Positions 15,568 to 37,640 of a DNA stretch of 64,000 bases are shown one piece after another. The notes under the pieces were generated by a model. It did no database searches, had not been told where the DNA came from, and worked only from the letters and a program-made list of their open reading frames with translations. Source of the stretch: Candidatus Saccharimonadia bacterium (lineage in GTDB: Bacteria > Patescibacteriota > Saccharimonadia > Saccharimonadales > 2-12-FULL-41-12); NCBI GenBank assembly GCA_963717365.1, contig OY970327.1, forward strand, positions 139,599-203,598, read 5' to 3'. The translations under genes and the position numbers were made by a program. Every line of letters starts with the position of its first letter. Position 1 is the first letter of the stretch.

Positions 15568-15810
15568 CAAATGGAAATATATTGTATCCAATTTCTTACT
15601 TACAATAACAGTTAAGTCTGACTTACACTTTTACTCTGTTATATACTTGCAATATTATCCAATTTATGCTATCCTATATACTGCTTTGTAGCTTTTGCTT
15701 CAAATGCAACTTAAAAAGTAGGTAATCCAAGTTTTTTGCGCACTGATACCCGCGTACAACCCCCAACTTCGTAGTGCTCGCGCACCCAACGGCAACGTTA
15801 GGAGAAAGTG

Positions 15811-16368
15811 ATGGACGTACCGGAAGTACCGAAGTGGACGAAACGGCTGGCAGTCAAGATCGCCAAGTTCTTCATCCATATGACCATGAAGGTCAAGTGG
15901 CTGATCCTGGCGCTCTTTGTGACTCGCTTCGCCGCGGTCGTCATCTACCAGCCCATCGAGGACTGGAGCATGATCGACGCCTGGTGGTGGACGGAGGCTG
16001 CTTCGCAGACCATCGGCTACGGCGACGAAGCTCCTGCAACTGACCTCGGTCGCTTGCTGGCTGCTCCGTTCCACTACTTCTGGGTGTACTACACCGCACC
16101 GGCTCTGGTAGCCCACGTGGTGGCATACGTCTGGAAGAACAAGAACGAGTTCACCCATAACGAACAGGAGTGGTTGTTCAACACGATTGGCCGCATCTTC
16201 GAGTGGGTCCGCTGGCTGGTTCACGCCGTCCAGAAGATCGCCGAAGAGCGTGGCATCGTGCTTGACCCGCCGCCCAACGTCACGTCGGATGGCAGTCTCG
16301 AGACTCTCGCAGACCAAGCGCCCGACACTGACGACGGCAACCTCAACTTGCCGTATCCCGCCAAGTAG
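15811..16368 (+). CDS. Small potassium-channel protein (2-TM pore type), GC-rich block A
   Basis: Selectivity filter TIGYGD in WWWTEAASQTIGYGDEAP flanked by hydrophobic helices. aggaga RBS 5 nt before the ATG. Confidence 0.7.
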   Translation: MDVPEVPKWTKRLAVKIAKFFIHMTMKVKWLILALFVTRFAAVVIYQPIEDWSMIDAWWWTEAASQTIGYGDEAPATDLGRLLAAPFHYFWVYYTAPALVAHVVAYVWKNKNEFTHNEQEWLFNTIGRIFEWVRWLVHAVQKIAEERGIVLDPPPNVTSDGSLETLADQAPDTDDGNLNLPYPAK

Positions 16369-16426
16369 TTCCCCTCTCGTAACCACACCATCTACCCGGT
16401 TCATCTGAACCAGGAGGAGCACAAAC

Positions 16427-16768
16427 ATGCGTAAGTTCGGCATTTTCCTCGGCATCATCGTCATCCTGGCCATCATCGCCGCCATCGCTCTCGCCGCCAT
16501 GTCCAGTGGCATCAAGGGCACCGTCGTGGGCAAGACGTCCTCCAAGGGCACCGCCGTCTACAAGCAGAAGTGCAACAAGATGAAGGTCACGACGACCAAG
16601 AACGGCAAGAGGTCGACCAAGACCAAGAAGGTTTGCGGACCCAAGTCCTTCGCCGGCTACAAGACGAACTACCGGCTCCGCGTCAAGAACAAGAGCAAGG
16701 TCTCTACCGTCTCGGTCAGCCGCAGCACGTTCAACAAGAACCGCGTCGGGAGGAAGTACAAGAAGTAG
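16427..16768 (+). CDS. Small N-terminally membrane-anchored, Lys-rich protein, block A
   Basis: aggagg RBS, N-terminal TM segment, K-rich tail, G/C-ending codons. Confidence 0.5.
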   Translation: MRKFGIFLGIIVILAIIAAIALAAMSSGIKGTVVGKTSSKGTAVYKQKCNKMKVTTTKNGKRSTKTKKVCGPKSFAGYKTNYRLRVKNKSKVSTVSVSRSTFNKNRVGRKYKK

Positions 16769-16935
16769 CAACGCAGCAAGCTGGATCGCCAACTAAGTAG
16801 TCCTGACACAATCGGTGTCGGGCCGGCAGAGTGTCACAACATGAGCCCACGGACTCAAAGACACTCTGCCGAGGCAGGACTTTGTTAATTTGTTGATCCC
16901 CTGGATCCAAACCCAACTTACAAATTCCTGCCGCA

Positions 16936-16990
16936 TTTACCTACATAAATGTGTATTTATGCTGATGAGTCCAAAAGGACGAAAGGTAAA
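16936..16990 (+). ncRNA. Type III hammerhead ribozyme HHR1
   Basis: UUUACC-UA|CAUAAAU-GUGU-AUUUAUG-CUGAUGA-GUCC-AAAA-GGAC-GAA-A-GGUAAA. Predicted cleavage after 16943. Confidence 0.85.
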
Positions 16991-17028
16991 ATTACCAACA
17001 GAGTGTTCAATAAGGGGTTTATTTTTAT

Positions 17029-17080
17029 ACACTTTCGCCGTTTACGGCTCATCAGCATAGCTATAGTATCTATGGAGTGT
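17029..17080 (-). ncRNA. Type III hammerhead ribozyme HHR2 (divergent stems)
   Basis: Minus strand: ACAC-UC|CAUAGAUACUAUAGCUAUG-CUGAUGA-GCCG-UAAA-CGGC-GAA-A-GUGU. Stem I has one internal mismatch. Confidence 0.75.
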
Positions 17081-17260
17081 TGTACGGAAGAGCTGCATGT
17101 GTTTTTGTTGGTGGGTCGCTGGAATGCGATCCAAACACATGAGCCCTTCCGCAGGAGTTGATGGCTAACCTCCGAGCCAGTGTGATTTGTCTACTTCTCA
17201 GTAGAGAAGGACCTACTCACACGGTAGAATTTGTTGTACGTTATCCCGACTCAGACTGGA

Positions 17261-18340
17261 TCAGTCGAGGATGCGCGCTGCGTACAGGCCAGCCGGGACA
17301 TCCGGGTCATCCGCGTCGGGGACGAGCAGGACATCGATGCATCCCAGCGTGTGGTTGTACCGCGCGTCGACACCTTCGAGCTTGATGGACTGATCCTCAA
17401 GCGGTAGAAGCTTCACGAGGTTGCCCTCAGCGTCGATGACACCAACGATGCTGCCGGCGATCTGGCCCTTGATGGGTTCGAAATTCGCTTCGGCAGCTCC
17501 GGTGATGACCATGCGACCCTTGGGGTCCTCGTGCACCGAGTCGACATCGGTGAAATCCAGTTTCACCAAGTGACCTTCGTAGTCGGCGGAGCCGAGGTCG
17601 TACTGGCCGAGTTCTTCGAGCTCCAGCTGATCGATCTTGAGATCGGTGCAGAGACTCCACAGGAACTTGTCCAATGCGAGTCGGATCAGCATGTTCGGGG
17701 CAGGTGCACCGTCCTGGTCGAAGCTGTTGCCGCGCTGGGCGAGAACAAGCTGCGAGCCATGCACGGTGACTCCTTCGATGTTCAGCTCGCCGATGACGAT
17801 GTGCTCATCGAGGAACGTGTGCAGGCCTTCGAACGAGATCTTGGCGGGCAGGCCCCTGATGAGTCCGTTCTCGCCGAGCGAGTAGACCACACCAATCGAC
17901 CGGCGGACACCGCCCCAACTCATGCCACCCGATCCGACGATCAGGAGAAGGCCGTTCGGGAAACGTCTGGTCATCTCCATGCGAAGATTGCCATCGCTGA
18001 GGCGATTGATGTCGTCTCGCGTGATGATGGTCAGGGCCTCAAAATCGGCCTTGGCTTCGCTGCGTTCCCGGCCGCCAAGCGGCAGCACTTCGGGGATGAT
18101 GCGCTGCGCCGTGCCTGGCGACAGGATGTCGCGGTCTTCGCCGAGTCGCAATGCCTCTTGGACCTCTGTCCAGGCAATTGAAAACTCGGCCACCGCTGCC
18201 TGATCGTCACCGACCGAACGCAGAAGGCCCGATCGCGGCGACCATGCCACACCCGAGGCGGCTGACAGAAACGGCGGTTCGCCCGGATCCGGGTTAAGGA
18301 TGCGGTGCGTACCGAGTTGGATGAGTTTCAGCGATTGCAA
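17261..18340 (-). CDS. Hypothetical 359-aa protein, GC-rich block B
   Basis: TTG start preceded by aaggag-cacagc. G/C-ending codons. No family recognised. Confidence 0.6.
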   Translation of the reverse strand: MQSLKLIQLGTHRILNPDPGEPPFLSAASGVAWSPRSGLLRSVGDDQAAVAEFSIAWTEVQEALRLGEDRDILSPGTAQRIIPEVLPLGGRERSEAKADFEALTIITRDDINRLSDGNLRMEMTRRFPNGLLLIVGSGGMSWGGVRRSIGVVYSLGENGLIRGLPAKISFEGLHTFLDEHIVIGELNIEGVTVHGSQLVLAQRGNSFDQDGAPAPNMLIRLALDKFLWSLCTDLKIDQLELEELGQYDLGSADYEGHLVKLDFTDVDSVHEDPKGRMVITGAAEANFEPIKGQIAGSIVGVIDAEGNLVKLLPLEDQSIKLEGVDARYNHTLGCIDVLLVPDADDPDVPAGLYAARILD

Positions 18341-18469: not shown

Positions 18470-19144
18470 ATGCACAGTAATCTTGAACATCTGCGTGTTC
18501 GCCATAGTACACCAGTCGGCGATGAATTATTGGCAAATAACGAAGTCCTGCAAACAGCAATGGGCTTATTTGCTGCCGCGCAGGAGCCGCATAAGGCCCA
18601 TGTTCCGGGCTCAAGGTTGTTAGGAGCAGGCGAGTTTGGTTTTACTTTTGAGATTGGTGGTATAGCCGTAAAAATAAGCAGCCCTACTTCTAGTCAGAAG
18701 TCTTTTGATCTAGGAAGACCACTTCCTCCAGAAGACTTACGTAAACAATTCCTAACCTTAGCCGCATTAAGAGAACACCTGCAAGGCAAAGAAGAGGGTA
18801 TTGTGACACCTGAACAATACTTTGTAGCAACAACACCATATAAAGCGTTCATACTTGCCCAGGAGTATATGAATGGCTGGGTATCGTATGAAGATCGTAC
18901 TTCTCAGGTATTTGGACCTGCTGTAGAGACAAACGCTACCGACAGGCAAGAAATCGCCCAAGTCTCAGCTGGCATACGTCAACGAATTTTCCGTGCCCTT
19001 GGTGGTTTTGCTTTAATTAATAACATAAATGATCTTGCCTTACATAAAGAATCAGGCGTTCACGGCGGCAACCTGTTAGTACCTGAAACAGCTAATTTCG
19101 ATACGAATATGCCGCTTTGCATAATTGATCAACCGGCACCCTAA
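18470..19144 (+). CDS. Protein-kinase-like protein (possibly a pseudokinase), low GC
   Basis: Gly-loop plus Lys LLGAGEFGFTFEIGGIAVKI and hinge EYMNG. The catalytic loop reads HGGNLLV, lacking the usual Asp. Confidence 0.45.
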   Translation: MHSNLEHLRVRHSTPVGDELLANNEVLQTAMGLFAAAQEPHKAHVPGSRLLGAGEFGFTFEIGGIAVKISSPTSSQKSFDLGRPLPPEDLRKQFLTLAALREHLQGKEEGIVTPEQYFVATTPYKAFILAQEYMNGWVSYEDRTSQVFGPAVETNATDRQEIAQVSAGIRQRIFRALGGFALINNINDLALHKESGVHGGNLLVPETANFDTNMPLCIIDQPAP

Positions 19145-19201: not shown

Positions 19202-19241
19202 CTTGCCGTGCACCACTGTCCAACAAACAAGGGAGAAGCAC

Positions 19242-19700
19242 ATGTCGGAGCATCAGAGGCACTGCCCAGATTGCGGCACGCCCATGCAGAAGTACAAGGA
19301 ACGCGGTGAGACGGTGGATCGCTGCCCGCGCGATGGCATCATCGTGCTGGATCACGGCGAACTGCCGCGGATCATCGCGTCCGTCGCCAGCCAGCCCGGC
19401 TTCCGCCCGCCGCCCCCGCAGCAGGTGAAGCGACGCCCGTTCCGAGGTCTCGGCGCCGGTGTGTTCCACCACAGCTCGTCCTCGGACAAGCACTCGAGTG
19501 GCCATCACGCGCAGGTGTTCCACCACCACAGCTCGTCGGGCCACCAGGTCCATCACGCGCCGGTGTTCCACCACGTCACCTCGGACCACCACGGTCACCA
19601 CGGCTCGCACCACCACAAGTCCCACGACAGCATCTTCGAGGACATCTTCGAGGGCTCGGAGGACGACGGCGGCGGCTGGGAGGACTCGGGCGACGAGTAG
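19242..19700 (+). CDS. Zinc-ribbon (zf-TFIIB-like) protein with His-rich, acidic C-terminus, block C
   Basis: CPDCGTPM...DRCPRDGIIVLDHGEL, then repeated VFHH/HHxxSS/HGHHGSHHHKSH. gggaga RBS. Confidence 0.6.
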   Translation: MSEHQRHCPDCGTPMQKYKERGETVDRCPRDGIIVLDHGELPRIIASVASQPGFRPPPPQQVKRRPFRGLGAGVFHHSSSSDKHSSGHHAQVFHHHSSSGHQVHHAPVFHHVTSDHHGHHGSHHHKSHDSIFEDIFEGSEDDGGGWEDSGDE

Positions 19701-19771: not shown

Positions 19772-19848
19772 ATCGGAGGTAAGAAAAGTAAAATTTGTTG
19801 TCCTAAATTGACTCCCAACACATTTTTTACAATTCTTACCTCCACATA

Positions 19849-19899
19849 TGCCTTCATGAATGTGTATTCATGCTGATGAGTCCTAAAGGACGAAAGGCA
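19849..19899 (+). ncRNA. Type III hammerhead ribozyme HHR3
   Basis: UGCC-UU|CAUGAAU-GUGU-AUUCAUG-CUGAUGA-GUCC-UAAA-GGAC-GAA-A-GGCA. Predicted cleavage after 19854. Confidence 0.85.
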
Positions 19900-20011
19900 A
19901 TGTAAAAACTTTTTAAAACATGCTACTACATCAAATTGATTTAATCCGCTCATGCTTGCAATCTATACAAGCCAGGTGTTAAATATTCTTTTAAAAGGGA
20001 CAGCTACACGT

Positions 20012-20440
20012 ATGGCAAATTATGAAGTAACTGATTGTAAATCGATATATAAAATCGTGGAAGTGGCATATACCGATGGACTCGAAGGTAGCTACGAAAC
20101 ACCCCAAGAGACAACCGTATACAAAGTGGAGCCACCGTTTAATCCTGGCGAAGGTTTTACAAAACTGGCACTCGGTGCGTTCTCGTTAGTAACTACATAC
20201 CGTGGGTGCCCTGAGTTCACTCATCTGGCCACAACAGACGAGGCAACCTATTTTGTCTATCGAAACACCGAAGATAGGCCGACACTTCGGATCCTAAGCG
20301 ATAGTTTTCATCTGCAATTAAGTGAATTGCTCGGAAAAGTTAGCAATGATGACCATAAAATGAATACCCTTAGTCTTGCTACGATCGCCGCAAGCAGTGA
20401 AGTTAGTAACGGACGTCCACATATCTCTAGACGTTTCTAA
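20012..20440 (+). CDS. Hypothetical protein (low GC)
   Basis: ORF. ATG at 20012 preferred over the upstream start. Confidence 0.4.
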   Translation: MANYEVTDCKSIYKIVEVAYTDGLEGSYETPQETTVYKVEPPFNPGEGFTKLALGAFSLVTTYRGCPEFTHLATTDEATYFVYRNTEDRPTLRILSDSFHLQLSELLGKVSNDDHKMNTLSLATIAASSEVSNGRPHISRRF

Positions 20441-20506
20441 GTAACAATTCTATATTGACCGTAACAGTTAATAACTTATACTTTATGGTAACTAATAAGG
20501 ATTATT

Positions 20507-21133
20507 ATGGATCAAGATTTTAATAGACAAAAAGCAACGCCTTCAAGCGATGAACCGCCGAAGTATACTCCAGAATCTGCAGTAACCCCTTCCGTACCGC
20601 CCTCAAAGTCAAAATTTTCTGCAACACCAAAATCTAGTCGGCGAAAGGTTTTTGCAATAGTTATAAGCATAACGGTCCTTCTGGCATTAGTTGTTGCAGT
20701 CGCAAGTCTTGTTATGGCAAATAATAAAGCTGACAAGGCTCTCCTGACTGCACAGACAACTAAGTCAGAAGACTTGGAAAAACGCTTGTTGGCCATTGAG
20801 GAAGCAGAAGCCTATAGCGAGAAACAGATCAACCAGAACCAGAATCAGGCGGTATTCCTAGAAGGCGGCCAGGTTTACTTTGGCAAAATTACCGAAATTA
20901 CCAAAGATACCATGAAACTCAAGGATATTTACTATCTTAAAACCGGATCGGTTGATAAAACTGGAAATGTAGTTGGTGGCGCTGATGTCAGCTTAGTAAA
21001 ACTAGGCAATGAATTACATGGACCGGAAGATGCTATGATTATCGAGCGTAAAAATGTGACATTTTGGGAGAATTTGAAGGACGACGGGGAAGTATCCAAG
21101 GCGATTGCTGAATATAAAAAAGCCGGTAGGTAA
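20507..21133 (+). CDS. Membrane-anchored hypothetical protein (low GC)
   Basis: 208 aa with a single TM segment after a Pro/Ser-rich N-terminus. Confidence 0.5.
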   Translation: MDQDFNRQKATPSSDEPPKYTPESAVTPSVPPSKSKFSATPKSSRRKVFAIVISITVLLALVVAVASLVMANNKADKALLTAQTTKSEDLEKRLLAIEEAEAYSEKQINQNQNQAVFLEGGQVYFGKITEITKDTMKLKDIYYLKTGSVDKTGNVVGGADVSLVKLGNELHGPEDAMIIERKNVTFWENLKDDGEVSKAIAEYKKAGR

Positions 21134-21382
21134 TTCGTTAAAATATTTCAAGAATTTTTACAATAATAATTACTTTCACATAAGCATTTTACCCTTGTTA
21201 ACCTATATTTTATTAGCATATAAACATTTCATGTAATTATGTAGCTTTAACAACAAAAAACTGTTAAAATTTTATTAGCTCTCAGAAGCTAGAGGTGAGA
21301 CCTAGTTAACTCCTTGGTTTGTAATTCCTTGAGTGGAAGTATCTGAGTGCACATTAACACTCTAGTCGATTGGAGATCGACG

Positions 21383-22417
21383 ATGATGGCTAACGCCAAC
21401 ATTCCGCAGTTCCCGGTGAACGTGTTCACCCAGCGTGGCGAAACGGTCTACTCGCTCGTCATGAGCGCAAGCGACCTGGCGAAGTACGCCCGAGTCGAGC
21501 GGTACGAAGACACGTCTGACGGCGTCAATCGCAAGCTTGACGAGCGGCACGCCATGAGGATCGCCGAGTACATGCTCGAGCCCAAGGCTGTCATGTTGGA
21601 CGCCATCTGCGGCGACCTGCGTGGCGACTGGCAGATCATCAACAACATGCTGGTCGGCGACGAGGACTCCTACCTGTCGATCGACGATGGCCAGCACCGG
21701 TGGTGGGCAGTAACCAACCTGTTGGTCCCGGAAGAGCGTTCGCGGTGGTCATTCCCGACCGTTGCGACGATGGGTCTCGACTACGAGACTCGCATGGCCA
21801 TCTTCCTGCAGCAGTCGCAGCGGAAGTCGGTCGACAGCAAGCTCAGCCTGGCCATGAAGCACGAACTGGGTCGCTGGAACAACGATGCCGAGCGCGAGTC
21901 CTACACCCTCCTGCTGGCGCTGAACTCCGAGACTGGCTCGCCCCTCCAGGGCAAGATCATCCTCGGAGAGACGCTCCGGCGTTCCTACGAGTCCAGGTAC
22001 CGTCCCGAGGGCATTAACGCCAACGGACTGTGGAACACGCTTCGGTCCGTCATGGGCTCGAAGTCGCCACTGGCGCAGCTGTCCATGGAGAAGCGGATCG
22101 AAGTCGTCCGCAACATCATCTGGGTGGCAAAGGAGACGTGGCCAAAGGACTGGGAGTCTGACCACAGCATCCTGACGACAGCACGGGGGATCAACTCGAT
22201 CATCACGATGATCAGACGGAGGCCGTCGGAGTTCCAGGTCGCCATCAACAACGACTTCAGCATCGACAACCTGCGTCGCGTGTTCCGCTACGCCAAGTCG
22301 TTCAAGTGGCACGCCAACGAGCACAAGAACGCCAGCGACAAGACCATCACCGAGGCGCTCGACAAGGCCATCGGTGCCGGTATGAGGCGTGACAGAAGCG
22401 TTCAGCTCGTCGCGTAA
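21383..22417 (+). CDS. DGQHR-domain (DndB-like, ParB/Srx-fold) protein, block D
   Basis: Literal DGQHRWWA motif. ggaga RBS before ATGATG. Confidence 0.7.
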   Translation: MMANANIPQFPVNVFTQRGETVYSLVMSASDLAKYARVERYEDTSDGVNRKLDERHAMRIAEYMLEPKAVMLDAICGDLRGDWQIINNMLVGDEDSYLSIDDGQHRWWAVTNLLVPEERSRWSFPTVATMGLDYETRMAIFLQQSQRKSVDSKLSLAMKHELGRWNNDAERESYTLLLALNSETGSPLQGKIILGETLRRSYESRYRPEGINANGLWNTLRSVMGSKSPLAQLSMEKRIEVVRNIIWVAKETWPKDWESDHSILTTARGINSIITMIRRRPSEFQVAINNDFSIDNLRRVFRYAKSFKWHANEHKNASDKTITEALDKAIGAGMRRDRSVQLVA

Positions 22418-22495
22418 TCCCAAACGCACTAGTACGGCACCTTCCTTCACGGATGAAGTAAGGTGTCTGTACTAGGGCATGAAAGAGGTAACTCT

Positions 22496-23800
22496 ATGGA
22501 GGAAACCAACGGAAAGGTGATGGCACGAAACTGGTTCTACCAGGATTACCTGCCATCCATCTTGAGCCCGCGGTCGCTTCGCGCGAGTAACTACCTCGTT
22601 CTACTTGGGGAAGACTTTCGCGAACTGCCGCTCTTTGAAGAGCTGGAGGTCCCACTGTACCGGATTTTCTCGGTAGAGAATGACCAAAAGATCTTCGCTC
22701 GTCAGCGTGCTCACGCTCGCCGCGAGGAACTGGATGTAGTCCTGCATCACGGTGCGCTCTCTGAGTACATCCAGGACTACCTCATGACCGACCACCGGAT
22801 CTCGGTGTTCAACCTAGATATCTGTGGCTCATACTTGAAGGGGATTGACCCAGTTCTTGGGAAACTCCTGCTGTTTGCCCGGCGCAATCCGAGCACAATT
22901 ATGGCCACCTACTCGAGCGCCGCCCGAGATCGTCCGCAGCTCATGGAAGGGCTGAAATCACTCGTGGTACTTCTCTGGCTTGCTCCGGAGGTGATCGACC
23001 GCTTGGTACGGCATCTGTACAGCCAGTATCGGACGGCGTCACTTTCGGATAGAGAACGGAGCAGGGACGAAGTCAGCGTCAATATGCTGCTTCGGCACCT
23101 GTTCTGGATGAGAAGTCACATGGAACACATCCTTGTCGGATCGTATACGTTGGGCATGACGTCCTACGAAACGCTCTGCCGGGTGATGACAGACCAGAAT
23201 AAGGTCTGGGAGGAGTTCCTGGCGGACGCCACATTCCCGTTGACGTACGAAGCGGTTGTGGAATGGATCCTGAGAAAGAAAGAACCCGATCTCAGGAAGG
23301 TCAGGATGGATGTCTCCTTCGGGGACGTGCAATTCCTGACCTATGCCGCCAATAGCGGTTTCTACCAGAACTGCTACTTCGCCACCTACGAGCATGACGG
23401 GTCAACCCTGTCGCTCAGTAACTGGCTGGTCGAATCGGCCAAGAACCTCCGTACCAACCGCATTGTCATCGTTGACACTAACGGTGAGCAGTACCCGACG
23501 ACCTTTGGTCGGATTGCGGTTGACACCGACAAAGCGGTGCTCTGGAGCAAGAATGATCTGACATCCGACCTACGTAATGTGGCAATTCCGCCTTCCTCCG
23601 TTCAGGAGCGCGTGGCAGATGAGTCACAAAACGGAGTGTCGAATGACATCATGGAGCTGACACCCGAAACGATCGAGCAGATTCATAAGCTCGCCCGTCT
23701 TGGACTGAACTCCAGGGAAATTAGCGAGAAACTCTCGCTGAAGCTTCCGATGCCACGGATCACTGCCCAGGTCGCTCTGGCCCGGAGAAAATCTCCATAG
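22496..23800 (+). CDS. Hypothetical partner protein with C-terminal HTH, block D
   Basis: About 434 aa. C-terminus IEQIHKLARLGLNSREISEKLSL resembles an HTH. The start could instead be 22463. Confidence 0.55.
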   Translation: MEETNGKVMARNWFYQDYLPSILSPRSLRASNYLVLLGEDFRELPLFEELEVPLYRIFSVENDQKIFARQRAHARREELDVVLHHGALSEYIQDYLMTDHRISVFNLDICGSYLKGIDPVLGKLLLFARRNPSTIMATYSSAARDRPQLMEGLKSLVVLLWLAPEVIDRLVRHLYSQYRTASLSDRERSRDEVSVNMLLRHLFWMRSHMEHILVGSYTLGMTSYETLCRVMTDQNKVWEEFLADATFPLTYEAVVEWILRKKEPDLRKVRMDVSFGDVQFLTYAANSGFYQNCYFATYEHDGSTLSLSNWLVESAKNLRTNRIVIVDTNGEQYPTTFGRIAVDTDKAVLWSKNDLTSDLRNVAIPPSSVQERVADESQNGVSNDIMELTPETIEQIHKLARLGLNSREISEKLSLKLPMPRITAQVALARRKSP

Positions 23801-29224: not shown

Positions 29225-29414
29225 GTGAATGGCTCCTCTCGACTTGGGAAACAGGTACAATTGTATGGATATTACCAACAACAATCTGTAAAATAACATA
29301 AACTAAGATAAATTACAATAATGTGTGAAAATGCTTGTAAAATATATAAAATAGTGTAAAATACCATTTGTATTCAGCATCCCGCTGCTTACAAAACAAA
29401 GGGGACAGATCTAC

Positions 29415-30041
29415 ATGTCACTCCAGACGAAGAAGATCCCGCTCGCCCAGGGCGACACCAAGGCACTCCCGACCAACAAGGGTCAGGTCTTCACCGCCGG
29501 TGTCGGCTGGGATCCCGCCGCGGGCCAGGACACGGTCGACCTCGACCTCTGGCTGATCCGGACGCAGAGCGACGGCAACGTCGAGTGCGCCTTCTGGGGC
29601 AACCAGAAGTGGCAGCGTCCCGATCTGGGCACCAACGGCTCCGGCAGCCCCTACATCGCGTCCCCCGAGGGAGACGTGGTCCACAAGGGCGACGACCTGA
29701 CCGGTGCCGAGTCGGACACGGGTTACGACGAGACCATCGCCCTCGACCTGTCGAAGGCGCCGGCCACCGTGACTCAGTACGCGCTGTTCGCCACGATCTA
29801 CAGCGACGCGAACGACAAGACGCTCGGCATGGCCACCAACGTCATCTGCGGCGTCAAGGAGGAGAACTCGGGCAACGAGTACACCACCGAGCTCGCCGAC
29901 GATCACGGCTTCGACCTCTCGGTCCTCATCTGCACCATCGACAACGTCGACGGCAAGTGGAAGATGACCAACAAGGACGAGGGCTACGACGACCCGATGC
30001 CGGAGATCGCCAAGAAGCTGGGCGTGGTCGGCTTCCCGTAG
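29415..30041 (+). CDS. terD: TerD-domain stress protein, block E
   Basis: GVGWD, DLDLWL, HKGDDLTGAESDTGYDETIALDL, GKWKM...GYDD. Collinear with the TerD family pattern. Confidence 0.8.
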   Translation: MSLQTKKIPLAQGDTKALPTNKGQVFTAGVGWDPAAGQDTVDLDLWLIRTQSDGNVECAFWGNQKWQRPDLGTNGSGSPYIASPEGDVVHKGDDLTGAESDTGYDETIALDLSKAPATVTQYALFATIYSDANDKTLGMATNVICGVKEENSGNEYTTELADDHGFDLSVLICTIDNVDGKWKMTNKDEGYDDPMPEIAKKLGVVGFP

Positions 30042-30109: not shown

Positions 30110-30181
30110 GGGGGATGACTTATTTTTTTGGCCTTTCAGCCACCAATCTAAGTCATCCCCCGCTACCACCCCACGAATTTA
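30110..30181 (+). repeat. Conserved hairpin element, copy 2 (3' of terD); right arm of the inverted pair
   Basis: GGGGGAUGACUUA-(26 nt containing UGGC-N6-GCCA)-UAAGUCAUCCCCC-GCUACCACCCCACGAAUUUA. Confidence 0.6.
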
Positions 30182-30401: not shown

Positions 30402-31481
30402 GTGAGAAGCACCCTTTGGAAGTACTACAAGTACGACGTGCTGTTTGCCCTCGTGGTCACGATCGCGATCGGCTGGCAGTATGGCCTCCTGGCTGTACTC
30501 ACGTTGGGACTCGTTTCCGCCTTGGAGATCACTCTCTCTGGTGACAACGCGGTCGTCAACGCCCGAGTACTGGCCAAGATGAGCCCGTTCTGGCAGAAGA
30601 TGTTCATCACCATCGGCTACCTCATCGCCGTCGTTGGCATGCGGTTCGTCTTCCCAATCCTGATCGTGTCGCTGACCGCCGGACTTGGCTTCACCGAAGT
30701 CATCAACCTGGCATTCACCGACGTCGACACGTACGGAGACAAGCTGCATGACGCGCACGGCGAGATCGCCATGCTCGGCGGCATCTTCCTGTTGCTGGTC
30801 TTCCTGAACTACATGTTCGAAGAGAAGGAGACCACGTGGCTGGGACCGCTTGAGCGTCTGCTCGCACGCGGCGGCAAGCACGACAGTCTGTCGTACTTGA
30901 TCGCTGCGGTAGCGATTCTGGTGCTCAGCGCAACGCTCGGTGCAGACAAGCAGTATCCCGTGATGTTCGCTGGTTTCATCAGCTTGGCCGCCTTCATGGC
31001 AGTCAACATCTTCGCCGCGGCTTTCGAGCCAGAAGACGACGACGATGACATCGAGACGGTCAAGAGCAAGGTCGTTCAGAGGACGGGCATGGCGGCTTTC
31101 GGGCTGTTCATGTACCTGGAGTTTCAGGATGCTTCGTTCTCGTTCGACGGCGTGTCTGGCGCGTTCGCCATCACCGACAACATCGTCCTGATCACCGCTG
31201 GCCTGGCCATCGGCGCTCTGGCGGTTCGCTCGATGACGCTGCACCTGCTGCACACCAACAAGCTGGCCGAGTTCAAGTACCTCGAGCACGGCGCGCACTG
31301 GGCCATCGGCTCACTCGCCGTTTGTCAGCTGCTGACGATCCATTACCCGATCCCCGAGCCCCTCACCGGACTCATCGGCATCGTGTTCATCGGTCTCGCC
31401 ATCTGGTGGAGCAAGCGGGAAGAGAAGAAGGAAGCAGCCGAGCTGGCAGCAACTCCCGACCTGATGGTCGAGAAGGACTAG
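30402..31481 (+). CDS. DUF475 / TerC-like integral membrane protein, block F
   Basis: LEITLSGDNAVVNA and LEFQDASFSFDGVSGAFAIT paired motifs, multi-TM. Confidence 0.7.
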   Translation: MRSTLWKYYKYDVLFALVVTIAIGWQYGLLAVLTLGLVSALEITLSGDNAVVNARVLAKMSPFWQKMFITIGYLIAVVGMRFVFPILIVSLTAGLGFTEVINLAFTDVDTYGDKLHDAHGEIAMLGGIFLLLVFLNYMFEEKETTWLGPLERLLARGGKHDSLSYLIAAVAILVLSATLGADKQYPVMFAGFISLAAFMAVNIFAAAFEPEDDDDDIETVKSKVVQRTGMAAFGLFMYLEFQDASFSFDGVSGAFAITDNIVLITAGLAIGALAVRSMTLHLLHTNKLAEFKYLEHGAHWAIGSLAVCQLLTIHYPIPEPLTGLIGIVFIGLAIWWSKREEKKEAAELAATPDLMVEKD

Positions 31482-31508
31482 CCAGCCGCGGCTGACGAAA
31501 AGTGATGA

Positions 31509-31547
31509 GGGTGTGGTCTCTAATGCTCCGCAAAGGAGACCACACCC
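31509..31547 (+). terminator. GC-rich hairpin terminator
   Basis: gggtgtggtctc-(15 nt)-gagaccacaccc, flanked by gaaaag/cttttc. Confidence 0.5.
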
Positions 31548-31610
31548 CGCGCTTTTCGCCTTCTCAATTTTACTCACACTGTTATCTACCACCTTATTAC
31601 AACTAGTATC

Positions 31611-34813: not shown

Positions 34814-35488
34814 TTACTTCTTCGCCCTCAGGGTGAACTCATGCCAGTGCACGGAGTCGCCTTCGACGCCGGCGGTGTTCGTGACGCACTGGGCGTAGTC
34901 GATCACCTGGAAGCCGGCGGCTCGGAACAGTCGTTCGATGTCGGCGCGCTGCCAGAACACGAACAAACGTGTGCTCTCCATGCCGAGTGACCGCTTGTCC
35001 CACATGAGGCGGGAGCAGAAGGGGTTGTTCTCGGGATGGTGAGCGACCGTGCAGAACGCATGGGCGTCCGGCTCGAGCACCCGGTGGGTCTCGGTCATGA
35101 CGGCAGGCAGATGCTGGCGCTCGATGTGCTGAAGCACGTTGAGGGCAAGCCAGCCGCCGAAGCTCTCGTCTGCGAAGTCGAGGGCGTCTGCAGTCATGTT
35201 CAGGATCTCGAGACTGGGGTCTCGTTCCTGCGCGAGTTCCACGAAGTGGCTGCTGATGTCGGTGCCGACGTACGAGAAACCACGAGTGTGGAGCAGGTCA
35301 GCCGGATAGGCCTCGCCGCAGCCGATCTCGAGCACGCGTGCGCCAGGCGACAGGTACCTCATGAAACGCTTGACCCAGGGGTCCCAGTACCCAGGGGGGC
35401 GCTTCCAGTCCGTGTTGTTGTAGTACTCCACGGTCTGTGCTTCGTCTGCGGACAGCTGTGTGCCTACCGCTGGCGGAAGTATTGTCAT
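34814..35488 (-). CDS. Class I SAM-dependent methyltransferase, block G
   Basis: Motif I VLEIGCGEAY. gaggagagag RBS. Confidence 0.7.
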   Translation of the reverse strand: MTILPPAVGTQLSADEAQTVEYYNNTDWKRPPGYWDPWVKRFMRYLSPGARVLEIGCGEAYPADLLHTRGFSYVGTDISSHFVELAQERDPSLEILNMTADALDFADESFGGWLALNVLQHIERQHLPAVMTETHRVLEPDAHAFCTVAHHPENNPFCSRLMWDKRSLGMESTRLFVFWQRADIERLFRAAGFQVIDYAQCVTNTAGVEGDSVHWHEFTLRAKK

Positions 35489-35520
35489 CTCTCTCCTCTG
35501 TGGGGAAAAATACCTTTAAT

Positions 35521-35549
35521 ATCATACCAAATAATTGTAAAAAATACAA
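35521..35549 (-). promoter_or_regulatory. Sigma70-like promoter facing block G
   Basis: Minus strand TTGTAT, 17-nt spacer, TATGAT, 33 nt downstream of HHR5. Confidence 0.45.
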
Positions 35550-35582
35550 GTAAGTATAATATTATATTTTTTAGCCATTATT

Positions 35583-35635
35583 TTCACTTTCGTCCTTTTG
35601 GACTCATCAGCATAAATACGCATTTATGGAGTGAA
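35583..35635 (-). ncRNA. Type III hammerhead ribozyme HHR5
   Basis: Minus strand UUCAC-UC|CAUAAAU-GCGU-AUUUAUG-CUGAUGA-GUCC-AAAA-GGAC-GAA-A-GUGAA. Confidence 0.85.
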
Positions 35636-35983
35636 GAGAGGGTAGAAAAGAAAGATTAGGGAGTCAAAAAGACTCAGTAAAAATTAATTTCTACCCCTTA
35701 TCGGTAGAGTTAGGAAGAGGTAAGAGTCAAAAAAGACCCAAAACTATCCTGTCTCAACGGCCGGGTGACAACATGCGAGCATAGCTCACGAAGTTGACAA
35801 CCCGTGCCGGCCTGGGAACCCAGGGCTTTATCTAATCTAGGCATAGACTGCCTTGTTGCGGTCAGAACCACAGACCTTCGAGTAGAACGCTGATCACGAT
35901 CGAAATCCACCTTGACGGCAGAGATCAGCTGGCACTCGCTGACGTACAGTTCGCGTGAAGCGAGTCGACGTTAGCGTTTGTGC

Positions 35984-36691
35984 TTACCGCTCCTTACCAA
36001 CCGTGTATGACTGCATGGCCTTGATGATCTCCATGTAGGTGATGAGCGACATGTCGACTTCGTCAGCACTGCGAGGTGCCGGCGGATTGTCATCCGTGTC
36101 GTCATCCATCCACGCGTCGATGAACAGGTACATCAGGAACGGGTTGTTGCCCGGTCCGTAGAACCCGAAGTACTGGGGCCCGTAGGGATCCCGGTACAGG
36201 TACGTCGTTCCGCCGTGGCGGTACGAGCCCTTGCTCATCTTCCGGTAGTCCCGGTTGTAGTTCGCACCGCGAGGCACGTACTTCGGTCGGGTCTTCGGGT
36301 TGTTGTATCGCGCGATCTTTACCGGTGAGGCCTTGGGCACGAGCTTCGTGATTGGGGCCTTCAACGACGTGGGACCGCTGGTTGAGGTAGGAGTCCTGCT
36401 GGCACTCCGCGAGGGCGTGCTGGGACTGTTGCTCTTGCCGGAGCCACTGCTCTTGGTCGCGCTGCTGGGTGGGGTGCTGCTCTTGCCACCGAAACTGGCC
36501 GGCGGGGGAGTGACCTTCGTCGGATTCGAAGCCGGCGGCGGTGGGGGAGTGACTCTCACCGGCGGTGGCGGTGGCGGCGGACTGATCCTGACCGGCGGTG
36601 GCGGTGGCGGGCTGAACGCACCGAAGCTGACACCAGGGAATGCCACCAGTACTGCGATGAGCGACACTGCGAATGCACTACCGTGTCTCAT
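35984..36691 (-). CDS. Secreted proline-rich protein, block H
   Basis: Signal-peptide-like N-terminus, PPPPPPVRISPPPPPPPVRVTPPPPP repeats. gaggtg RBS overlaps the upstream stop. Confidence 0.55.
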   Translation of the reverse strand: MRHGSAFAVSLIAVLVAFPGVSFGAFSPPPPPPVRISPPPPPPPVRVTPPPPPASNPTKVTPPPASFGGKSSTPPSSATKSSGSGKSNSPSTPSRSASRTPTSTSGPTSLKAPITKLVPKASPVKIARYNNPKTRPKYVPRGANYNRDYRKMSKGSYRHGGTTYLYRDPYGPQYFGFYGPGNNPFLMYLFIDAWMDDDTDDNPPAPRSADEVDMSLITYMEIIKAMQSYTVGKER

Positions 36692-36701
36692 GTGTGTCAC
36701 C

Positions 36702-37145
36702 TCAGTACGCGTTGATGTTCCTGATGTGGCCGGCGATGGTCGTCTGGAGAGACTTGGTCGCGCGGGCGTAACCCTCGGGATCATCTCCGGGCGACTTCTG
36801 AACGAGGTCGGCGTAGTTCTTGATCGCCTGGCTCAGCTGCGCGGCCTCCGTCTCGAGCTCGGGCTCCGGCGCCTTGAGGGCGTCGATGTTCCGTGCTGTC
36901 TGGCGGAGGTTGTTGGCCACGGCCTGCATCGTCGAGACGTCTTCGCTGGACGAGGACGAGTCATTGGTGAGGGGGGCGAGCTTGGCGAGCTGAAGGCCGA
37001 ACTTGGCGTTCTGCTGGTTGATCTGCACCTTGAAGGTTCGCACCGGGTCGACGGCCGAGGCCACGTCCCTGACGGTGTCGCCACAGGCCGCGAGGCTTGC
37101 GGTGAGGGTGAAGATCAAAGCGGTGATGATGGTTCGACGGATCAT
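36702..37145 (-). CDS. Lipoprotein, block H
   Basis: Lipobox LTASLAAC, aggaga RBS. Confidence 0.6.
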   Translation of the reverse strand: MIRRTIITALIFTLTASLAACGDTVRDVASAVDPVRTFKVQINQQNAKFGLQLAKLAPLTNDSSSSSEDVSTMQAVANNLRQTARNIDALKAPEPELETEAAQLSQAIKNYADLVQKSPGDDPEGYARATKSLQTTIAGHIRNINAY

Positions 37146-37640
37146 TGGTTGTGTCTCCTGGTTCTATTTGAGCCGTGTATGGATGCACTGACGTCTTGCC
37201 GTATCGTCGTTGAACGATACAAAAAATCGATGGAAAGCGTGTTGCTAGGGGAGTTTACAAAGGCGTTGCCTTGTTACTCTCCTTTCTACTCTTGGGTTGT
37301 TAATGTTCAAGCTTATCAGTTTGAAAACTGACCGCTATACTCCTTTGTCGAGGTAATCGAATTACTGCTTCAGACAAAAAGCTATAAAATATTAACATAA
37401 AATTGATAAAAATGCAAGTATAAGCACTACTTTTTACATATTATTTGTATATCGATGAAGGCCGCCTGATTCTGCTAACCGTATGATACTAGTATGGCGA
37501 TATAACAGATGAAACGATAAATGTAATAGCGTAGACTAGTAGCTATGTAACGATACAAGATAATAAAAAACAAGCCAGATTAGTTCGAGCTTGATATACT
37601 CAGATTGAACCAGGGAATACACGTTAAATATTGCAATATC

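Follow-up and report, generated by a model that had tools for sequence, protein, structure and literature searches.

Between about 15.7 and 37.3 kb of the 64,000-nt stretch of DNA analysed here (the window; 45.6% GC overall), GC-rich genes alternate with AT-rich DNA, which raises the question of whether this mosaic records foreign genes taken up recently or a composition that the host lineage maintains. An earlier note on this DNA favoured the former, namely repeated, recent, gene-sized acquisition from a high-GC donor into promoter-bearing slots. The window would be a variable accessory-gene stretch of the ~1.19-Mb chromosome of a member of Ca. Saccharimonadales (TM7, Patescibacteria). We assigned this host because homologs 70–84% identical to a DUF8128/DUF87/TrwB-type ATPase, encoded by a low-GC core gene (24160..26961, plus strand; GC3 0.44), carry that name.

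The two-class mosaic is real. In 100-nt and 500-nt profiles, GC content shifted abruptly between ~25–45% and 55–73% at the block edges proposed earlier, and four hand counts of 60-nt lines (36, 37, 25 and 11 of 60) were exact on recount. The reported preference of the blocks for G/C-ending codons was evident as a GC3 of 0.68–0.94 in 12 genes between 15.8 and 37.1 kb (pooled, 0.81), compared with a mean of 0.389 (sd 0.048, maximum 0.53) in the baseline set of 51 non-block genes of at least 100 aa; the lowest block gene lay 6.1 sd above the non-block mean. Long antisense shadow ORFs were concentrated in the blocks, as had been described. GC1/GC2 was almost equal between the classes (0.58/0.42 in block and 0.54/0.38 in other genes), as was amino acid make-up, and the composition of block proteins (Ala 8.6%, Lys 5.0%, Ile 5.6%, Arg 5.7%) is native-like. 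Two-fold codon families of block genes were near fixation (AAG 0.93, TAC 0.92, TTC 0.90), with GGT, CGT and GCT tolerated.

The enriched unit tracks the transcript, running from an AT-rich promoter through a dip at the first codons and a GC-rich coding sequence to stable 3' hairpins, and it terminates at a terminator or a type III hammerhead ribozyme. The start-codon edge was sharp, and GC3 was 0.61 over codons 2–11 compared with 0.83 for later codons. The AT-rich 5' flanks did not differ significantly in GC (38% for GC3-rich genes, 32% for others), and the 3' flanks were 52% GC for GC3-rich genes compared with 36% for others (P ~1e-5). Near-consensus sigma70 promoters were found in AT-rich spacers 5' of several blocks (for example, 19172-19201 ahead of the gene at 19203, 30192-30220 ahead of that at 30402, and 18432-18404 ahead of a minus-strand gene whose start is at 18340). 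Equally good promoters precede low-GC genes (for example, 24024-24052, 32000-31972 and 32091-32119), and the Shine-Dalgarno-like sequence ascribed to each block was present upstream of most block genes. The units are gene-sized and lie between native AT-rich promoter-bearing spacers, as claimed. Further, a comparison of 20 ORFs of the region with Pfam revealed no integrase, reverse transcriptase or transposase domain, and the IS1595 transposase reported upstream was located at 10094-10948.

Chimeric assembly, against which the earlier note had cautioned, is effectively excluded. Gene order over window positions ~17.2–31.3 kb is the same in a 14,352-bp contig from a separate Logan assembly (ERR12037361), which crosses more than 10 junctions in ~14 kb; because this assembly covers most junctions, the window is not a chimera. 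Further, gene-by-gene GC3 alternation was seen again in independent assemblies of other genomes (NCBI, ENA, JGI and Logan), and the junctions are non-random, falling at start codons and 3' tails. The mixing of a high-GC organism's reads into a TM7 contig, for which the compositional contrast is the sole support, is extremely improbable.

The leftmost block genes encode a small K+ channel-like protein with a TIGYGD filter (15808..16368, plus strand; GC3 0.81; Pfam Ion_trans_2, E 5.8e-8) and a 113-aa Lys-rich membrane-anchored protein (16427..16768, plus; GC3 0.94), whose gene has a GC-rich hairpin tail to ~16915. A DUF6910/DUF6929 protein identified with Pfam follows (17261..18340, minus; GC3 0.75); its nearest relatives were at most 62% identical and all metagenome sequences, and its plasmid matches were from Rhizobiales (~29% identity). 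An interleaved low-GC gene (18470..19144, plus; GC3 0.34) precedes that of a TFIIB-type zinc-ribbon protein carrying a His-rich repeat tail (19203..19700, plus; GC3 0.87), and two more low-GC genes (19952..21133, plus; the first at 19952-20440; GC3 0.37 and 0.38) precede that of a DndB-like DGQHR-domain protein (21347..22417, plus; GC3 0.86; Pfam DndB, E 2.8e-11), for which PADLOC, plasmid and viral searches yielded no relative. The gene of a 445-aa protein (22463..23800, plus; GC3 0.68) is probably co-transcribed with the latter. Downstream of the ATPase gene lies a low-GC gene (27013..28218, plus; GC3 0.40) of a family that accompanies vWA-TerF in the loci compared. The Ter-type cluster comprises a vWA-TerF-like protein (28403..29299, minus; GC3 0.84; Pfam, E 9e-32; true start likely near 29224), TerD of a TM7-specific subfamily (29415..30041, plus; GC3 0.94; from Pfam, subfamily and loci comparison), a DUF475/TerC-family membrane protein (30402..31481, plus; GC3 0.83; Pfam, E 9e-103, with homologs and a tree), a low-GC HAD hydrolase (32125-32856, plus), two low-GC PRTase_3 genes (32859-33722, plus; 33771-34754, minus; GC3 0.35–0.38 for these three genes) and a SAM-dependent methyltransferase found by Pfam scan (34814..35488, minus; GC3 0.82). 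A Pro-rich secreted/membrane protein (35984-36784, minus; GC3 0.74) and a lipoprotein-like protein (36702-37145, minus; GC3 0.88) are encoded further right.

Five candidate type III hammerhead ribozymes, which had escaped the earlier note, were found in the window, compared with 0.03 matches to the core pattern expected. HH-a (16935..16992, plus), 167 nt past the stop of 16427-16768, matches the core pattern; it was sub-threshold with Rfam Hammerhead_3, scored 81.9 bits with model R1 and is supported by covariation. HH-b (17025..17083, minus), 178 nt past the stop of the DUF6910 gene, has GCCG/CGGC as stem II in place of GUCC/GGAC. HH-c (19846..19903, plus; Rfam Hammerhead_3, 34.3 bits, E 5e-4) lies 146 nt past the stop of 19203-19700 and 49 nt ahead of the low-GC gene 19952-20440. 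The core pattern and a model search also located HH-d (23929..23986, plus), 129 nt past the stop of 22463-23800 and 174 nt ahead of the ATPase start, and HH-e (35580..35637, minus), ~350 nt past the stop of 35984-36784 and 92 nt ahead of the methyltransferase start. The block end formerly placed at 23930 falls on HH-d. Across six genomes there were 11 distinct copies, all 3' of a same-strand gene at 63–315 nt (~350 nt for HH-e). In the covariation test, 90.8% of cells were paired and 11 of 18 pairs were compensatory, and none of 500 shuffles scored as high. All five window copies follow GC3-rich genes, though such genes account for 12 of 63. Covariation supports these hammerheads, which lie 3' of GC-rich genes and are predicted to cleave there.

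Other 3' elements were found in the cluster. A ~50-nt imperfect palindrome in the vWA gene tail (28290..28338, minus; inverted repeat I3, 80% complementary) and its partner copy in the TerD tail (30123..30171, plus) both fold. Past DUF475, at approximately 31497..31585 (plus), a conserved element consisting of the hairpin GGTCTC...GGAGACC and ACTCACACTGTT is common to the window, L093 and L095. Stable 3' hairpins occurred in every genome (−30 to −49 kcal/mol per 70 nt).

We compared four of the 12 block families (vWA-TerF, TerD, DUF475 and the methyltransferase) in the genomic context of relatives. Lineage-specific families, cluster synteny and a common hammerhead family suggest that L091, L094, L095, L001 and L004 are TM7. 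GC3 was 0.71–0.94 in all eight TerD loci, 0.67–0.91 in all ten vWA-TerF loci (orthologs 50–60% identical), 0.60–0.89 in all seven DUF475 loci and 0.85–0.93 in all four copies of the small gene after TerD; the methyltransferase homolog of L095, within the Ter cluster, was also GC3-rich. Block families were thus GC3-rich (0.6–0.96) in at least six other genomes, in which ribosomal/translation genes were at ~0.4; in L091 and L095 the adjoining S2, EF-Ts, RRF, L31 and RF-1 genes had a GC3 of 0.40–0.50. The family of 27013-28218 was always alongside vWA-TerF and was GC3-poor (0.38–0.51) in all five genomes having it, and in L093 and L094 it was flanked on both sides by GC3-rich genes. The compositional dichotomy is conserved across genomes. 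Recent segmental import fails because these families are GC3-rich, and the interleaved gene GC3-poor, across several TM7-type genomes. The PRTase and HAD families were GC3-rich in L091, L094 and L095 and at baseline in L093, L001 and L004, a variation that a simple model of the same selection everywhere does not predict. The loci compared contained no homolog of the K+ channel, Lys-rich, DUF6910, Zn-ribbon, DndB-like, 445-aa, Pro-rich or lipoprotein genes, which may represent older horizontal transfer; because four of 12 block genes were examined in this context, we extrapolate when we extend the class to every block.

The syntenic genomes L091 and L095 indicate how persistent the composition is. 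Their housekeeping genes differed at 43–63% of conserved-residue codons and their vWA genes at 31% (close to the 36–41% of deeply diverged vWA pairs), with vWA GC3 0.88–0.89 in both copies and G/C endings in both at 78–90% of conserved-residue codons. Thus, G/C endings persist across heavy synonymous turnover. Synonymous divergence of TerD was lower (13%), which could reflect a more recent common origin in place of constraint.

The block genes tested are of TM7 affinity. The window TerD subfamily has 26 members (best identity 62%), of which the sole named one is a Ca. Saccharimonadales MAG, and plasmid-borne TerDs, including actinobacterial ones, were at most 31% identical (Nocardia and Prescottella, 27%). 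The window DUF475 fell in a TM7/metagenome clade set off from Actinomycetota (95% bootstrap); its named relatives, at 42–50% identity, were mostly Actinomycetota. Recent import from a high-GC donor was not supported for vWA-TerF, TerD, DUF475 or the methyltransferase: their nearest relatives, at most 62% identical, were in TM7-type genomes, and for every block placed the closest homologues belong to the lineage of the core genes. No block protein tested had a relative of at least 90% identity among ~15 billion proteins. TerD, DUF475 and DUF6910 had no relative over 62% identity among 5.8–15 billion proteins, and viral contigs yielded no close relatives of DUF6910, the DndB-like protein, the 445-aa protein or the methyltransferase. 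What stands of the earlier interpretation, which is partly supported, is gene-by-gene exchange. Between L091 and L095, DUF475 was 39% and HAD 37% identical beside a TerD 85% identical, and the window DUF475 differs in type from that of genomes with its TerD/vWA type; gene-sized replacement thus takes place between TM7 lineages. Transfer therefore contributes, as the different chromosomal sites of the Ter cluster and an actinobacterial-type DUF475 in L098 (100% bootstrap) also show.

Our preferred reading, to which as a whole we give about an even chance, is that the GC-rich blocks are a lineage-wide, old and maintained class of TM7 stress/accessory genes; the contrast would be old, not fresh foreign DNA, because the same genes show it in distant TM7 relatives. 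The blocks would be transcript bodies, from start codon through structured 3' tail, and the native scaffold around them, which is AT-rich, would supply sigma70 promoters, U-tract terminators and type III hammerhead ribozymes. The class, best documented by vWA-TerF, TerD, DUF475/TerC and the associated methyltransferase, would be actively kept at GC3 0.7–0.95, with the remaining genes, those for ribosomal proteins and translation factors among them, near 0.4, and its members would also be swapped singly among TM7 lineages. We infer from sequence that the maintaining force is selection on mRNA: stable 3' hairpins, together with a coding body rich in GC, would yield long-lived, insulated transcripts with a 3' end fixed by ribozyme cleavage or a terminator, and the AT-rich 5' region would, like the first codons, remain unstructured for initiation.

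Composition would instead mirror origin, not function, if the genes came from a flexible accessory pool with a GC-rich home (Saccharimonadales of uniformly high GC, L090 among them, or a GC-rich mobile element of TM7 that is as yet unsampled) and entered low-GC genomes singly, so frequently that amelioration never finishes. L090 is such a TM7 genome (60% GC, housekeeping GC3 ~0.8, ATPase 78–81% identical to that of the window), and the replacement of DUF475 and HAD, the varied chromosomal location of the Ter cluster, the uneven PRTase/HAD GC3 and the usual setting of bacterial hammerheads in mobile or prophage-like regions (PMC3088659) are consistent with this pool. However, the codon dialect of L090 is unlike that of the blocks, the window TerD subfamily occurred in no uniformly high-GC genome among the sampled loci, and the protein searches (TerD, DUF475 and DUF6910) and viral-contig searches (four block proteins) returned no close relatives; moreover, the 27013-28218 family, although it moves along with the cluster, has low GC3 wherever it occurs, and vWA GC3 is retained despite near-saturated synonymous change. 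We consider this origin rather unlikely. Recent single-gene uptake, as first proposed, is quite unlikely. Its most plausible donors would be the actinobacterial hosts of TM7, which live as epibionts of Actinomycetota (PMC10973392), and the named DUF475 relatives, the L098 gene and the similarity of codon dialect to Streptomyces fit such donors; the context comparison, moreover, covered four block genes. For those four, the model is already contradicted by high GC3 of the same genes across many TM7 genomes. It is further opposed by native-like amino acid composition, the affinities of TerD, DUF475 and DUF6910, the absence of plasmid matches for the DndB-like protein and of cluster-mates at 90% identity or above, and hammerheads of the TM7 type, along with conserved 3' elements of TM7, within and bordering the blocks.

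GC-biased gene conversion would raise GC3 through biased repair if block genes were recombination hot spots in naturally competent TM7 populations. Recombination and replacement within the cluster are evident, and the enrichment reaches non-coding 3' tails, which is unexpected under translational selection; yet Lassalle and co-workers reportedly described, in 2015, bacterial effects far below a shift from 0.4 to 0.9, and neither a GC3-poor gene flanked by GC3-rich genes in both L093 and L094 nor a sharp start-codon boundary with AT-rich 5' flanks favours this process, which we judge very unlikely. Classical translational selection, with the blocks as the most highly expressed genes using optimal codons, would account for the GC3 rank order being consistent across genomes with TerD at the top, for the reduced TerD divergence and for the near-fixed and tolerated codons. 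It is nevertheless highly unlikely, given that in the same genomes the genes of ribosomal proteins and of elongation or release factors have a baseline GC3, and given the enriched 3' untranslated tails.

High GC3 is not inherent to the DUF475 family: in control loci from Psychrobacter and Moraxella, which have a similar GC content, the GC3 range was narrow and the common DUF475 gene was at baseline. The codon dialect of the window blocks was also near that of Streptomyces (r 0.976) and differed from that of the uniformly 60%-GC TM7 genome L090 (r 0.88, distance 1.05; AAG 0.93 in the blocks versus 0.59), and its closest match was the dialect of the GC3-rich genes in other TM7 genomes (r 0.98, distance 0.41).

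The GC content of the window was 45.6%. Between 15.7 and 37.3 kb it switched sharply between approximately 25-45% and 55-73%; the switches fell where the earlier note had placed them, and its four hand counts of G+C per line were all exact on recount. That composition and codon usage are atypical for the host was borne out by a frame-resolved analysis, in which the G/C share at third codon positions (GC3) was 0.68-0.94 in 12 genes (pooled, 0.81; hereafter, block genes) and 0.389 ± 0.048 (mean ± sd; maximum, 0.53) in the remaining 51 genes. The least extreme block gene lay 6.1 sd from the mean of the other genes. GC1 and GC2 were nearly equal between the classes (0.58/0.42 in block genes vs. 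0.54/0.38), and amino-acid composition was almost identical. Thus, the contrast was essentially synonymous. We rejected these values as a disproof of foreign origin, as they exclude the proteome of a donor of ~70% GC but not that of a donor of ~60% GC; they serve as supporting evidence.

A 14.3-kb contig of a separate Logan assembly (ERR12037361) agreed with the window in gene order from DUF6910 through DUF475, and exact window proteins were also present on a 1,191,543-bp NCBI/ENA contig. Because the independent Logan contig has an identical gene order, assembly chimerism is effectively excluded as the source of the mosaic. On the Logan contig, the gene caller took a 178-aa antisense shadow ORF (19176-19757, minus strand) over the GC3-rich zinc-ribbon gene at 19203-19700 (plus strand). 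Automated annotation of GC-rich blocks in AT-rich genomes can therefore choose the wrong strand.

The GC3-rich genes encode a small K+ channel (15808-16368; 186 aa, a single Ion_trans_2 pore domain with the canonical selectivity filter TIGYGD), a Lys-rich membrane protein, a DUF6910/DUF6929 protein, the His-rich zinc-ribbon protein, a DndB-like DGQHR protein with an adjoining 445-aa protein, a vWA-TerF-like protein (Pfam E 9e-32), TerD (Pfam E 1.3e-17), DUF475/TerC (Pfam DUF475 E 9e-103), a SAM methyltransferase, a Pro-rich protein and a lipoprotein-like protein. For a K+ channel of bacterial type, this is an unusually small protein. The C-terminal half of the zinc-ribbon protein is a His/Ser-rich repeat (variations of VFHH..SSS..H), with direct repeats of ~33 nt at 19461-19583 inside the gene; this neighbor of Ter-type stress genes may be a metal-binding protein. 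Interleaved low-GC genes include those for a DUF8128/DUF87/TrwB-type ATPase, a HAD hydrolase and two PRTase_3 proteins. Together, vWA-TerF, TerD, DUF475, HAD and the two PRTase_3 genes form a Ter-type stress cluster. Its core trio (TerD, the TerC/DUF475 membrane protein and the TerY/TerF-type vWA protein) is complete in the window; the metabolite module is represented by HAD and the two PRTase_3 genes, and ATP-grasp, C-C lyase and TelA were found only in relatives. Since HAD and PRTase_3 are low in GC and vWA, TerD and DUF475 are GC3-rich, one functional cluster spans both compositional classes.

The DNA of the window is chromosomal and belongs to TM7. Homologs of the ATPase at 70-84% identity number in the hundreds, and all source-named ones belong to Candidatus Saccharimonadales or Patescibacteria. 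The genes flanking the mosaic are ordinary housekeeping genes (LigA, LeuS, MurF, FabD and Cfa). Among them, FabD (malonyl-CoA:ACP transacylase, 42591-43529) and cyclopropane-fatty-acyl-phospholipid synthase (52114-53229) share the low GC of the native genes; genes for lipid synthesis are generally reported to be scarce in CPR/Patescibacteria. Just upstream of the mosaic lie an APH-family phosphotransferase-like gene (8269-9147), which matches aminoglycoside and macrolide kinases weakly, and an IS1595-family transposase gene (10094-10948), both of native composition. PADLOC found no defence system. As the earlier note had stated, mobility genes were missing: integrase and transposase Pfam domains were absent from the 20 scanned ORFs of the region. 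Further, there was no flanking tRNA within 15-38 kb, and the repeats found there were hammerhead ribozymes and 3' hairpins.

In TM7 genomes, the Ter-cluster genes carry a conserved, gene-specific and largely synonymous GC enrichment. We compared the loci in which the nearest relatives of TerD and DUF475 are encoded (L001-L005 and L091-L101), several of which are of presumed TM7 identity. The fetched loci shared the order vWA(-), TerD(+), small gene, DUF475(+), followed by HAD, PRTase, C-C lyase, ATP-grasp and TelA. GC3 was 0.71-0.94 for TerD in 8/8 loci, 0.67-0.91 for vWA-TerF in 10/10, 0.60-0.89 for DUF475 in 7/7 and 0.85-0.93 for the small gene after TerD in 4/4; TelA had 0.69-0.80. The Ter cluster of L095 (a 1.07-Mb contig) occupies a chromosomal site identical to that in L091. 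In both, it is flanked by S2/EF-Ts/RRF and L31/RF-1, and Ter genes at GC3 0.85-0.96 lie beside these translation genes at 0.40-0.50. Conversely, the homolog of the low-GC window gene at 27013-28218 had a GC3 of 0.38-0.51 in all five carrier genomes; in two of them (L093 and L094) it has GC3-rich genes on either side, an arrangement that segmental import cannot yield. In Psychrobacter and Moraxella control loci (41-45% GC), DUF475 was at baseline GC3, so the protein family as such does not account for the enrichment.

The earlier note had read the blocks as gene-sized units placed in a native promoter scaffold through recent acquisition from a high-GC donor. The gene-sized units, the native scaffold and gene replacement stood; recent acquisition from a high-GC donor was contradicted in those blocks that could be tested. 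For TerD, vWA and DUF475, the closest relatives reside in TM7-type genomes rather than in a donor lineage. TerD had 26 relatives at E ≤ 1e-10 (best identity, 61-62%), the sole organism-named one being a Saccharimonadales MAG. Against 72,556 plasmids its best identity was 31%, actinobacterial TerDs included (Nocardia and Prescottella, 27%). The best DUF475 matches were 57-60% identical, and source-named matches at 42-50% were mostly from Actinomycetota. In a bootstrapped NJ tree, the window DUF475 clustered with TM7-type and metagenome sequences, and 95% support separated this group from all Actinomycetota, Psychrobacter/Moraxella and Deinococcus. A scan of species-representative genomes with the DUF475 alignment supplied comparators only; the matches listed, at least 600 (Streptomyces, Nocardia, Psychrobacter, Deinococcus), were all 42-49% identical and included neither the source genome nor its siblings. 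A methyltransferase homolog was present in the Ter cluster of L095, and eight of the 12 block genes had no homolog in the fetched comparison loci. For DUF6910, an exhaustive search of 1.84 billion representatives gave a best match of 62% and nine matches below 1e-30; its plasmid matches were from Rhizobiales (~29% identity). The DndB-like protein had no plasmid match, and viral contigs held no close relative of DUF6910, the DndB-like protein, the 445-aa protein or the methyltransferase.

Recency fared no better. None of the seven window proteins looked up exactly, block and native, had a foreign full-length cluster-mate at 90% identity or more among ~15 billion proteins; best identities were 60-62%, and the Ter genes were GC3-rich in many relatives. 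The neighborhood of the ATPase was variable between genomes. We had also considered L001-L005 as siblings showing vertical inheritance, given their synteny and similar GC3. This was rejected, as their TerD, PRTase and HAD proteins are only 24-38% identical to those of the window; these loci are distant from it and carry little weight with respect to recency.

The age of the enrichment was examined by comparing L091 with L095. In housekeeping genes, 43-63% of conserved-residue codons differed, which is near saturation, and in vWA 31% differed, close to the value for deeply diverged vWA pairs (36-41%), with vWA GC3 remaining at 0.88-0.89 in both genomes. Across the Ter genes, 78-90% of conserved-residue codons were G/C-ending in both. 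Thus, G/C endings were kept through about one substitution per synonymous site, which speaks for a force that maintains them rather than for a recent arrival yet to ameliorate. TerD was less diverged (13% of conserved-residue codons), which could reflect constraint or a later shared origin.

TerD is 85% identical between L091 and L095, yet DUF475 (L091, 11666-12841; L095, 11993-13102) is 39% and HAD (L091, 13184-13897; L095, 14911-15663) 37% identical. Judged from these sequences, the difference is a gene-sized xenologous replacement within a conserved cluster. Further, the window DUF475 is of the L001/L004 type (57-59%), whereas TerD and vWA in the window belong to the L091/L093 type. The mixed gene types and the L091/L095 mismatch together argue that single genes were swapped for distant homologs, the replacements being GC3-rich too. 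In L098 (OFQZ01000038.1), which also carries a TM7-subfamily TerD, DUF475 (14937-16163) nests in Actinomycetota near Cryobacterium and Nocardia with 100% bootstrap. The gene may be a genuine import from that phylum, or the contig may belong to another lineage; given its actinobacterial type and bootstrap value, imports from Actinomycetota do seem to occur somewhere.

The GC enrichment was polar and transcript-shaped. The 5' flanks of block genes were AT-rich like those of other genes (38% vs. 32% GC, not significant), near-consensus sigma70 promoters lay upstream of both GC3-rich and GC3-poor genes, and GC3 in codons 2-11 was 0.61, compared with 0.83 in the rest of the block genes. The 3' untranslated flanks had 52% GC in block genes vs. 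36% in the others (P about 1e-5) and contained hairpins of very high stability (-30 to -49 kcal/mol per 70 nt), which recurred at equivalent positions, with differing sequences, in every genome compared. Each unit ended in a U-tract terminator (vWA, TerD and DUF475) or a hammerhead.

An imperfect palindrome of ~50 nt (GGGGGATGACTTA...TAAGTCATCCCCC, inner GGC/GCC stem) lies in the vWA tail (28290-28338) and the TerD tail (30123-30171). Because vWA and TerD are divergent, a 49-nt inverted repeat brackets this 1.9-kb gene pair; in relatives, hairpins of equal stability and other sequence occupy both tail positions. We rejected the idea that such 3' palindromes mark integron cassettes or TIR-bounded modules, as no integrase is present, units on both strands carry promoters of their own, and relatives show equivalent hairpins of other sequence. 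Downstream of DUF475, a non-coding element (hairpin GGTCTC(C)...GGAGACC plus ACTCACACTGTT) was common to the window (~31497-31585), L093 (~8715-8800) and L095 (~13125-13200), despite DUF475 coding sequences that are only 40-48% identical; no Rfam family matched it. This sharing of the DUF475 element is consistent with coding bodies having been swapped inside a conserved scaffold.

A repeat scan revealed a ~58-nt element with the core CUGAUGA-stem II-GAAA. Candidate type III hammerheads lie in the window at 16935-16992(+), 17025-17083(-), 19846-19903(+), 23929-23986(+) and 35580-35637(-), and in relatives in L088 (12711-12768(-) and 15415-15472(-)), L086 (12455-12512(-)), L093 (3235-3295(+)), L001 (7849-7908(-)) and L004 (3173-3233(-)). 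The core pattern matched five times in the window vs. 0.03 expected, each time inside the 15.7-37.3 kb region. All five copies have the exact catalytic core CUGAUGA...GAAA, and their cleavage-site residues, read from the sequences, are A, C, U, C and C (all non-G). On the plus strand, the predicted cleavage sites follow 16942, 19854 and 23939. By hand reading they are complete type III hammerheads with three helices, open at stem III. They are shorter than the Rfam seed consensus, with a loop II of 4 nt; against Rfam (RF00008 for the type III family) they scored 20.9-34.3 bits, below gathering, four as Hammerhead_3 (cut-off 48.5) and one as Hammerhead_1 (cut-off 34), and gathering mode gave no hammerhead match in the window. 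When eight copies were fitted to the three-stem structure, 90.8% of cells were paired, compared with 35-41% in slid controls, and compensatory changes occurred in 11 of the 18 pairs, a number reached by none of 500 shuffles. A covariance model recovered 11 distinct copies in six genomes, three outside its training set (L001, L086 and L093). This compact type III hammerhead family, which the earlier note overlooked, has strong covariation support and a predicted self-cleaving role.

All 11 copies lie downstream of a same-strand gene, at 63-315 nt, or about 350 nt for the copy at 35580-35637, measured from the stop of the minus-strand Pro-rich gene (35984-36784). In three genomes the upstream gene is TelA. 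The five window copies all follow GC3-rich genes (chance about 2.5e-4, with 12/63 genes GC3-rich), a count that takes the Pro-rich gene as upstream of the last copy and regards a 66-aa ORF in the tail of that gene as non-coding. Of the block ends proposed earlier, four were within ~60 nt of a hammerhead. A literature search found no paper tying hammerheads, Ter genes or GC3 heterogeneity to Saccharibacteria, nor hammerheads to Patescibacteria; searches for Saccharibacteria with codon usage/HGT or tellurium resistance found nothing relevant.

Taken together, the Ter-cluster block genes have TM7 affinity, have undergone gene-sized exchange within the lineage and are associated with hammerheads. 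We infer that the maintaining force is selection on mRNA, which would act via stability, insulation and processing, with the 5' end of the mRNA kept unstructured. Carrying this conclusion to the other eight block genes is an extrapolation. Classical translational selection for high expression is an unlikely cause, because ribosomal and translation-factor genes are unenriched (S2, EF-Ts, RRF, L31 and RF-1 of L091 and L095 at GC3 0.40-0.50) and because the enrichment extends beyond the translated region into the 3' flanks. GC-biased gene conversion is a possible contributor, as is a GC-rich TM7 gene pool. With regard to such a pool, genome-wide GC ranges widely in Saccharimonadales (45-60% among close relatives). 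The 22-kb Saccharimonadales locus L090 (ENA ERZ1759910, contig ZJ_forest2900105) has ~60% GC, an ATPase 78-81% identical to that of the window and a GC3 near 0.8 in all its genes, including RF, CTP synthase, L27 and RecO; RF-1 of L091/L095 was 37% identical to its counterpart there, a comparison probably of RF-1 with RF-2. In codon usage, the block genes most resembled the GC3-rich genes of other TM7 genomes (r 0.98, distance 0.41); Streptomyces was also close (r 0.976, distance 0.64), and L090 was dissimilar (r 0.88, distance 1.05; AAG 0.93 vs. 0.59). Thus, high-GC TM7 genomes exist, but the codon dialect rules out L090-like ones as donors. L098 was likewise rejected as a high-GC reservoir: its non-Ter genes have a GC3 of only 0.6-0.7, its DUF475 is actinobacterial-type and its lineage is uncertain.

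As a tentative proposal, which we regard as doubtful though worth stating, Saccharimonadales may possess a dedicated and modular mRNA class, comprising stress and accessory genes with G/C-ending codons, stable 3' hairpins and hammerhead release from read-through. Such a class would provide a minimal genome that is otherwise AT-rich with a set of transcripts of unusual stability or special translation. Its coding bodies would be swapped between lineages, and the AT-rich scaffold of promoter, ribozyme and terminator, with some 3' elements, would stay. More speculatively, the host-like (actinobacterial) codon dialect might itself be adaptive in the epibiont-host relationship. It is routine to take anomalies of GC content and codon usage for signs of recent horizontal transfer, a reading on which island-prediction tools depend. 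Here, the anomaly is extreme (GC3 0.9 beside 0.4), yet its gene-by-gene conservation extends to distant members of an order of ultra-small episymbiotic bacteria; it outlasts heavy synonymous turnover and tracks the transcript rather than the DNA segment. If this holds genome-wide, TM7 genomes would contain a selectively maintained second codon regime, offering a new handle on expression in hard-to-culture organisms and a warning against inferring host-to-symbiont transfer by composition alone; bacterial hammerheads would gain a concrete, testable role in 3'-end or inter-gene processing.

Compositionally atypical islands from horizontal transfer are reportedly covered by the amelioration framework of Lawrence and Ochman. 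The window resembles such islands in its sharp departure of GC and codon usage, its accessory, stress and defence-type genes, its variable region and gene replacement. It differs in that mobility genes and island borders are absent, the units are single transcript bodies and the nearest relatives are in the same order; because the atypical composition is kept in distant orthologs through synonymous turnover, it is not the decaying signature of a recent arrival. Gene-sized atypical units, each with an imperfect 3' palindrome and set between expression signals, also recall integron cassette arrays. However, no integron integrase (IntI) or integrase-type domain was found in the scanned ORFs of the region, the units lie on both strands with their own near-consensus promoters, and their 3' palindromes differ in sequence, show no shared attC-type core and resemble transcript 3' hairpins. 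The bldA/TTA genes of Streptomyces are a codon-defined regulon. Like them, the block genes are a functionally biased subset marked by codon choice that could gate or tune expression; unlike them, no dedicated tRNA was identified for the GC3-rich class, and the shift covers the whole coding body and the 3' untranslated tails, not one rare codon.

Ter clusters, as reportedly described by Anantharaman, Iyer and Aravind in 2012, comprise TerD, TerC/DUF475, TerY/TerF-type vWA, TelA, PRTase, HAD phosphatase, ATP-grasp and C-C lyase. The window matches this with vWA-TerF, TerD, DUF475, HAD and two PRTase_3 genes, to which relatives add TelA, ATPgrasp_Ter and C-C_Bond_Lyase. It departs from known clusters in that its TerD belongs to a divergent TM7-specific subfamily and the cluster is split into two codon-usage classes; we know of no previous description of two such classes in the Ter cluster of one genome. 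[quoted passage not shown] Similarly, the window has several consensus-core hammerheads within a few kb, which are intergenic and bracket genes of varied identity. In contrast to that pattern, their setting is a TM7 chromosome, with neither integrase nor phage genes close by, every copy is of compact type III form, has a stem I that is short and closed and scores below the Rfam cut-off, and they are located specifically downstream of GC3-rich genes, following TelA in three genomes.
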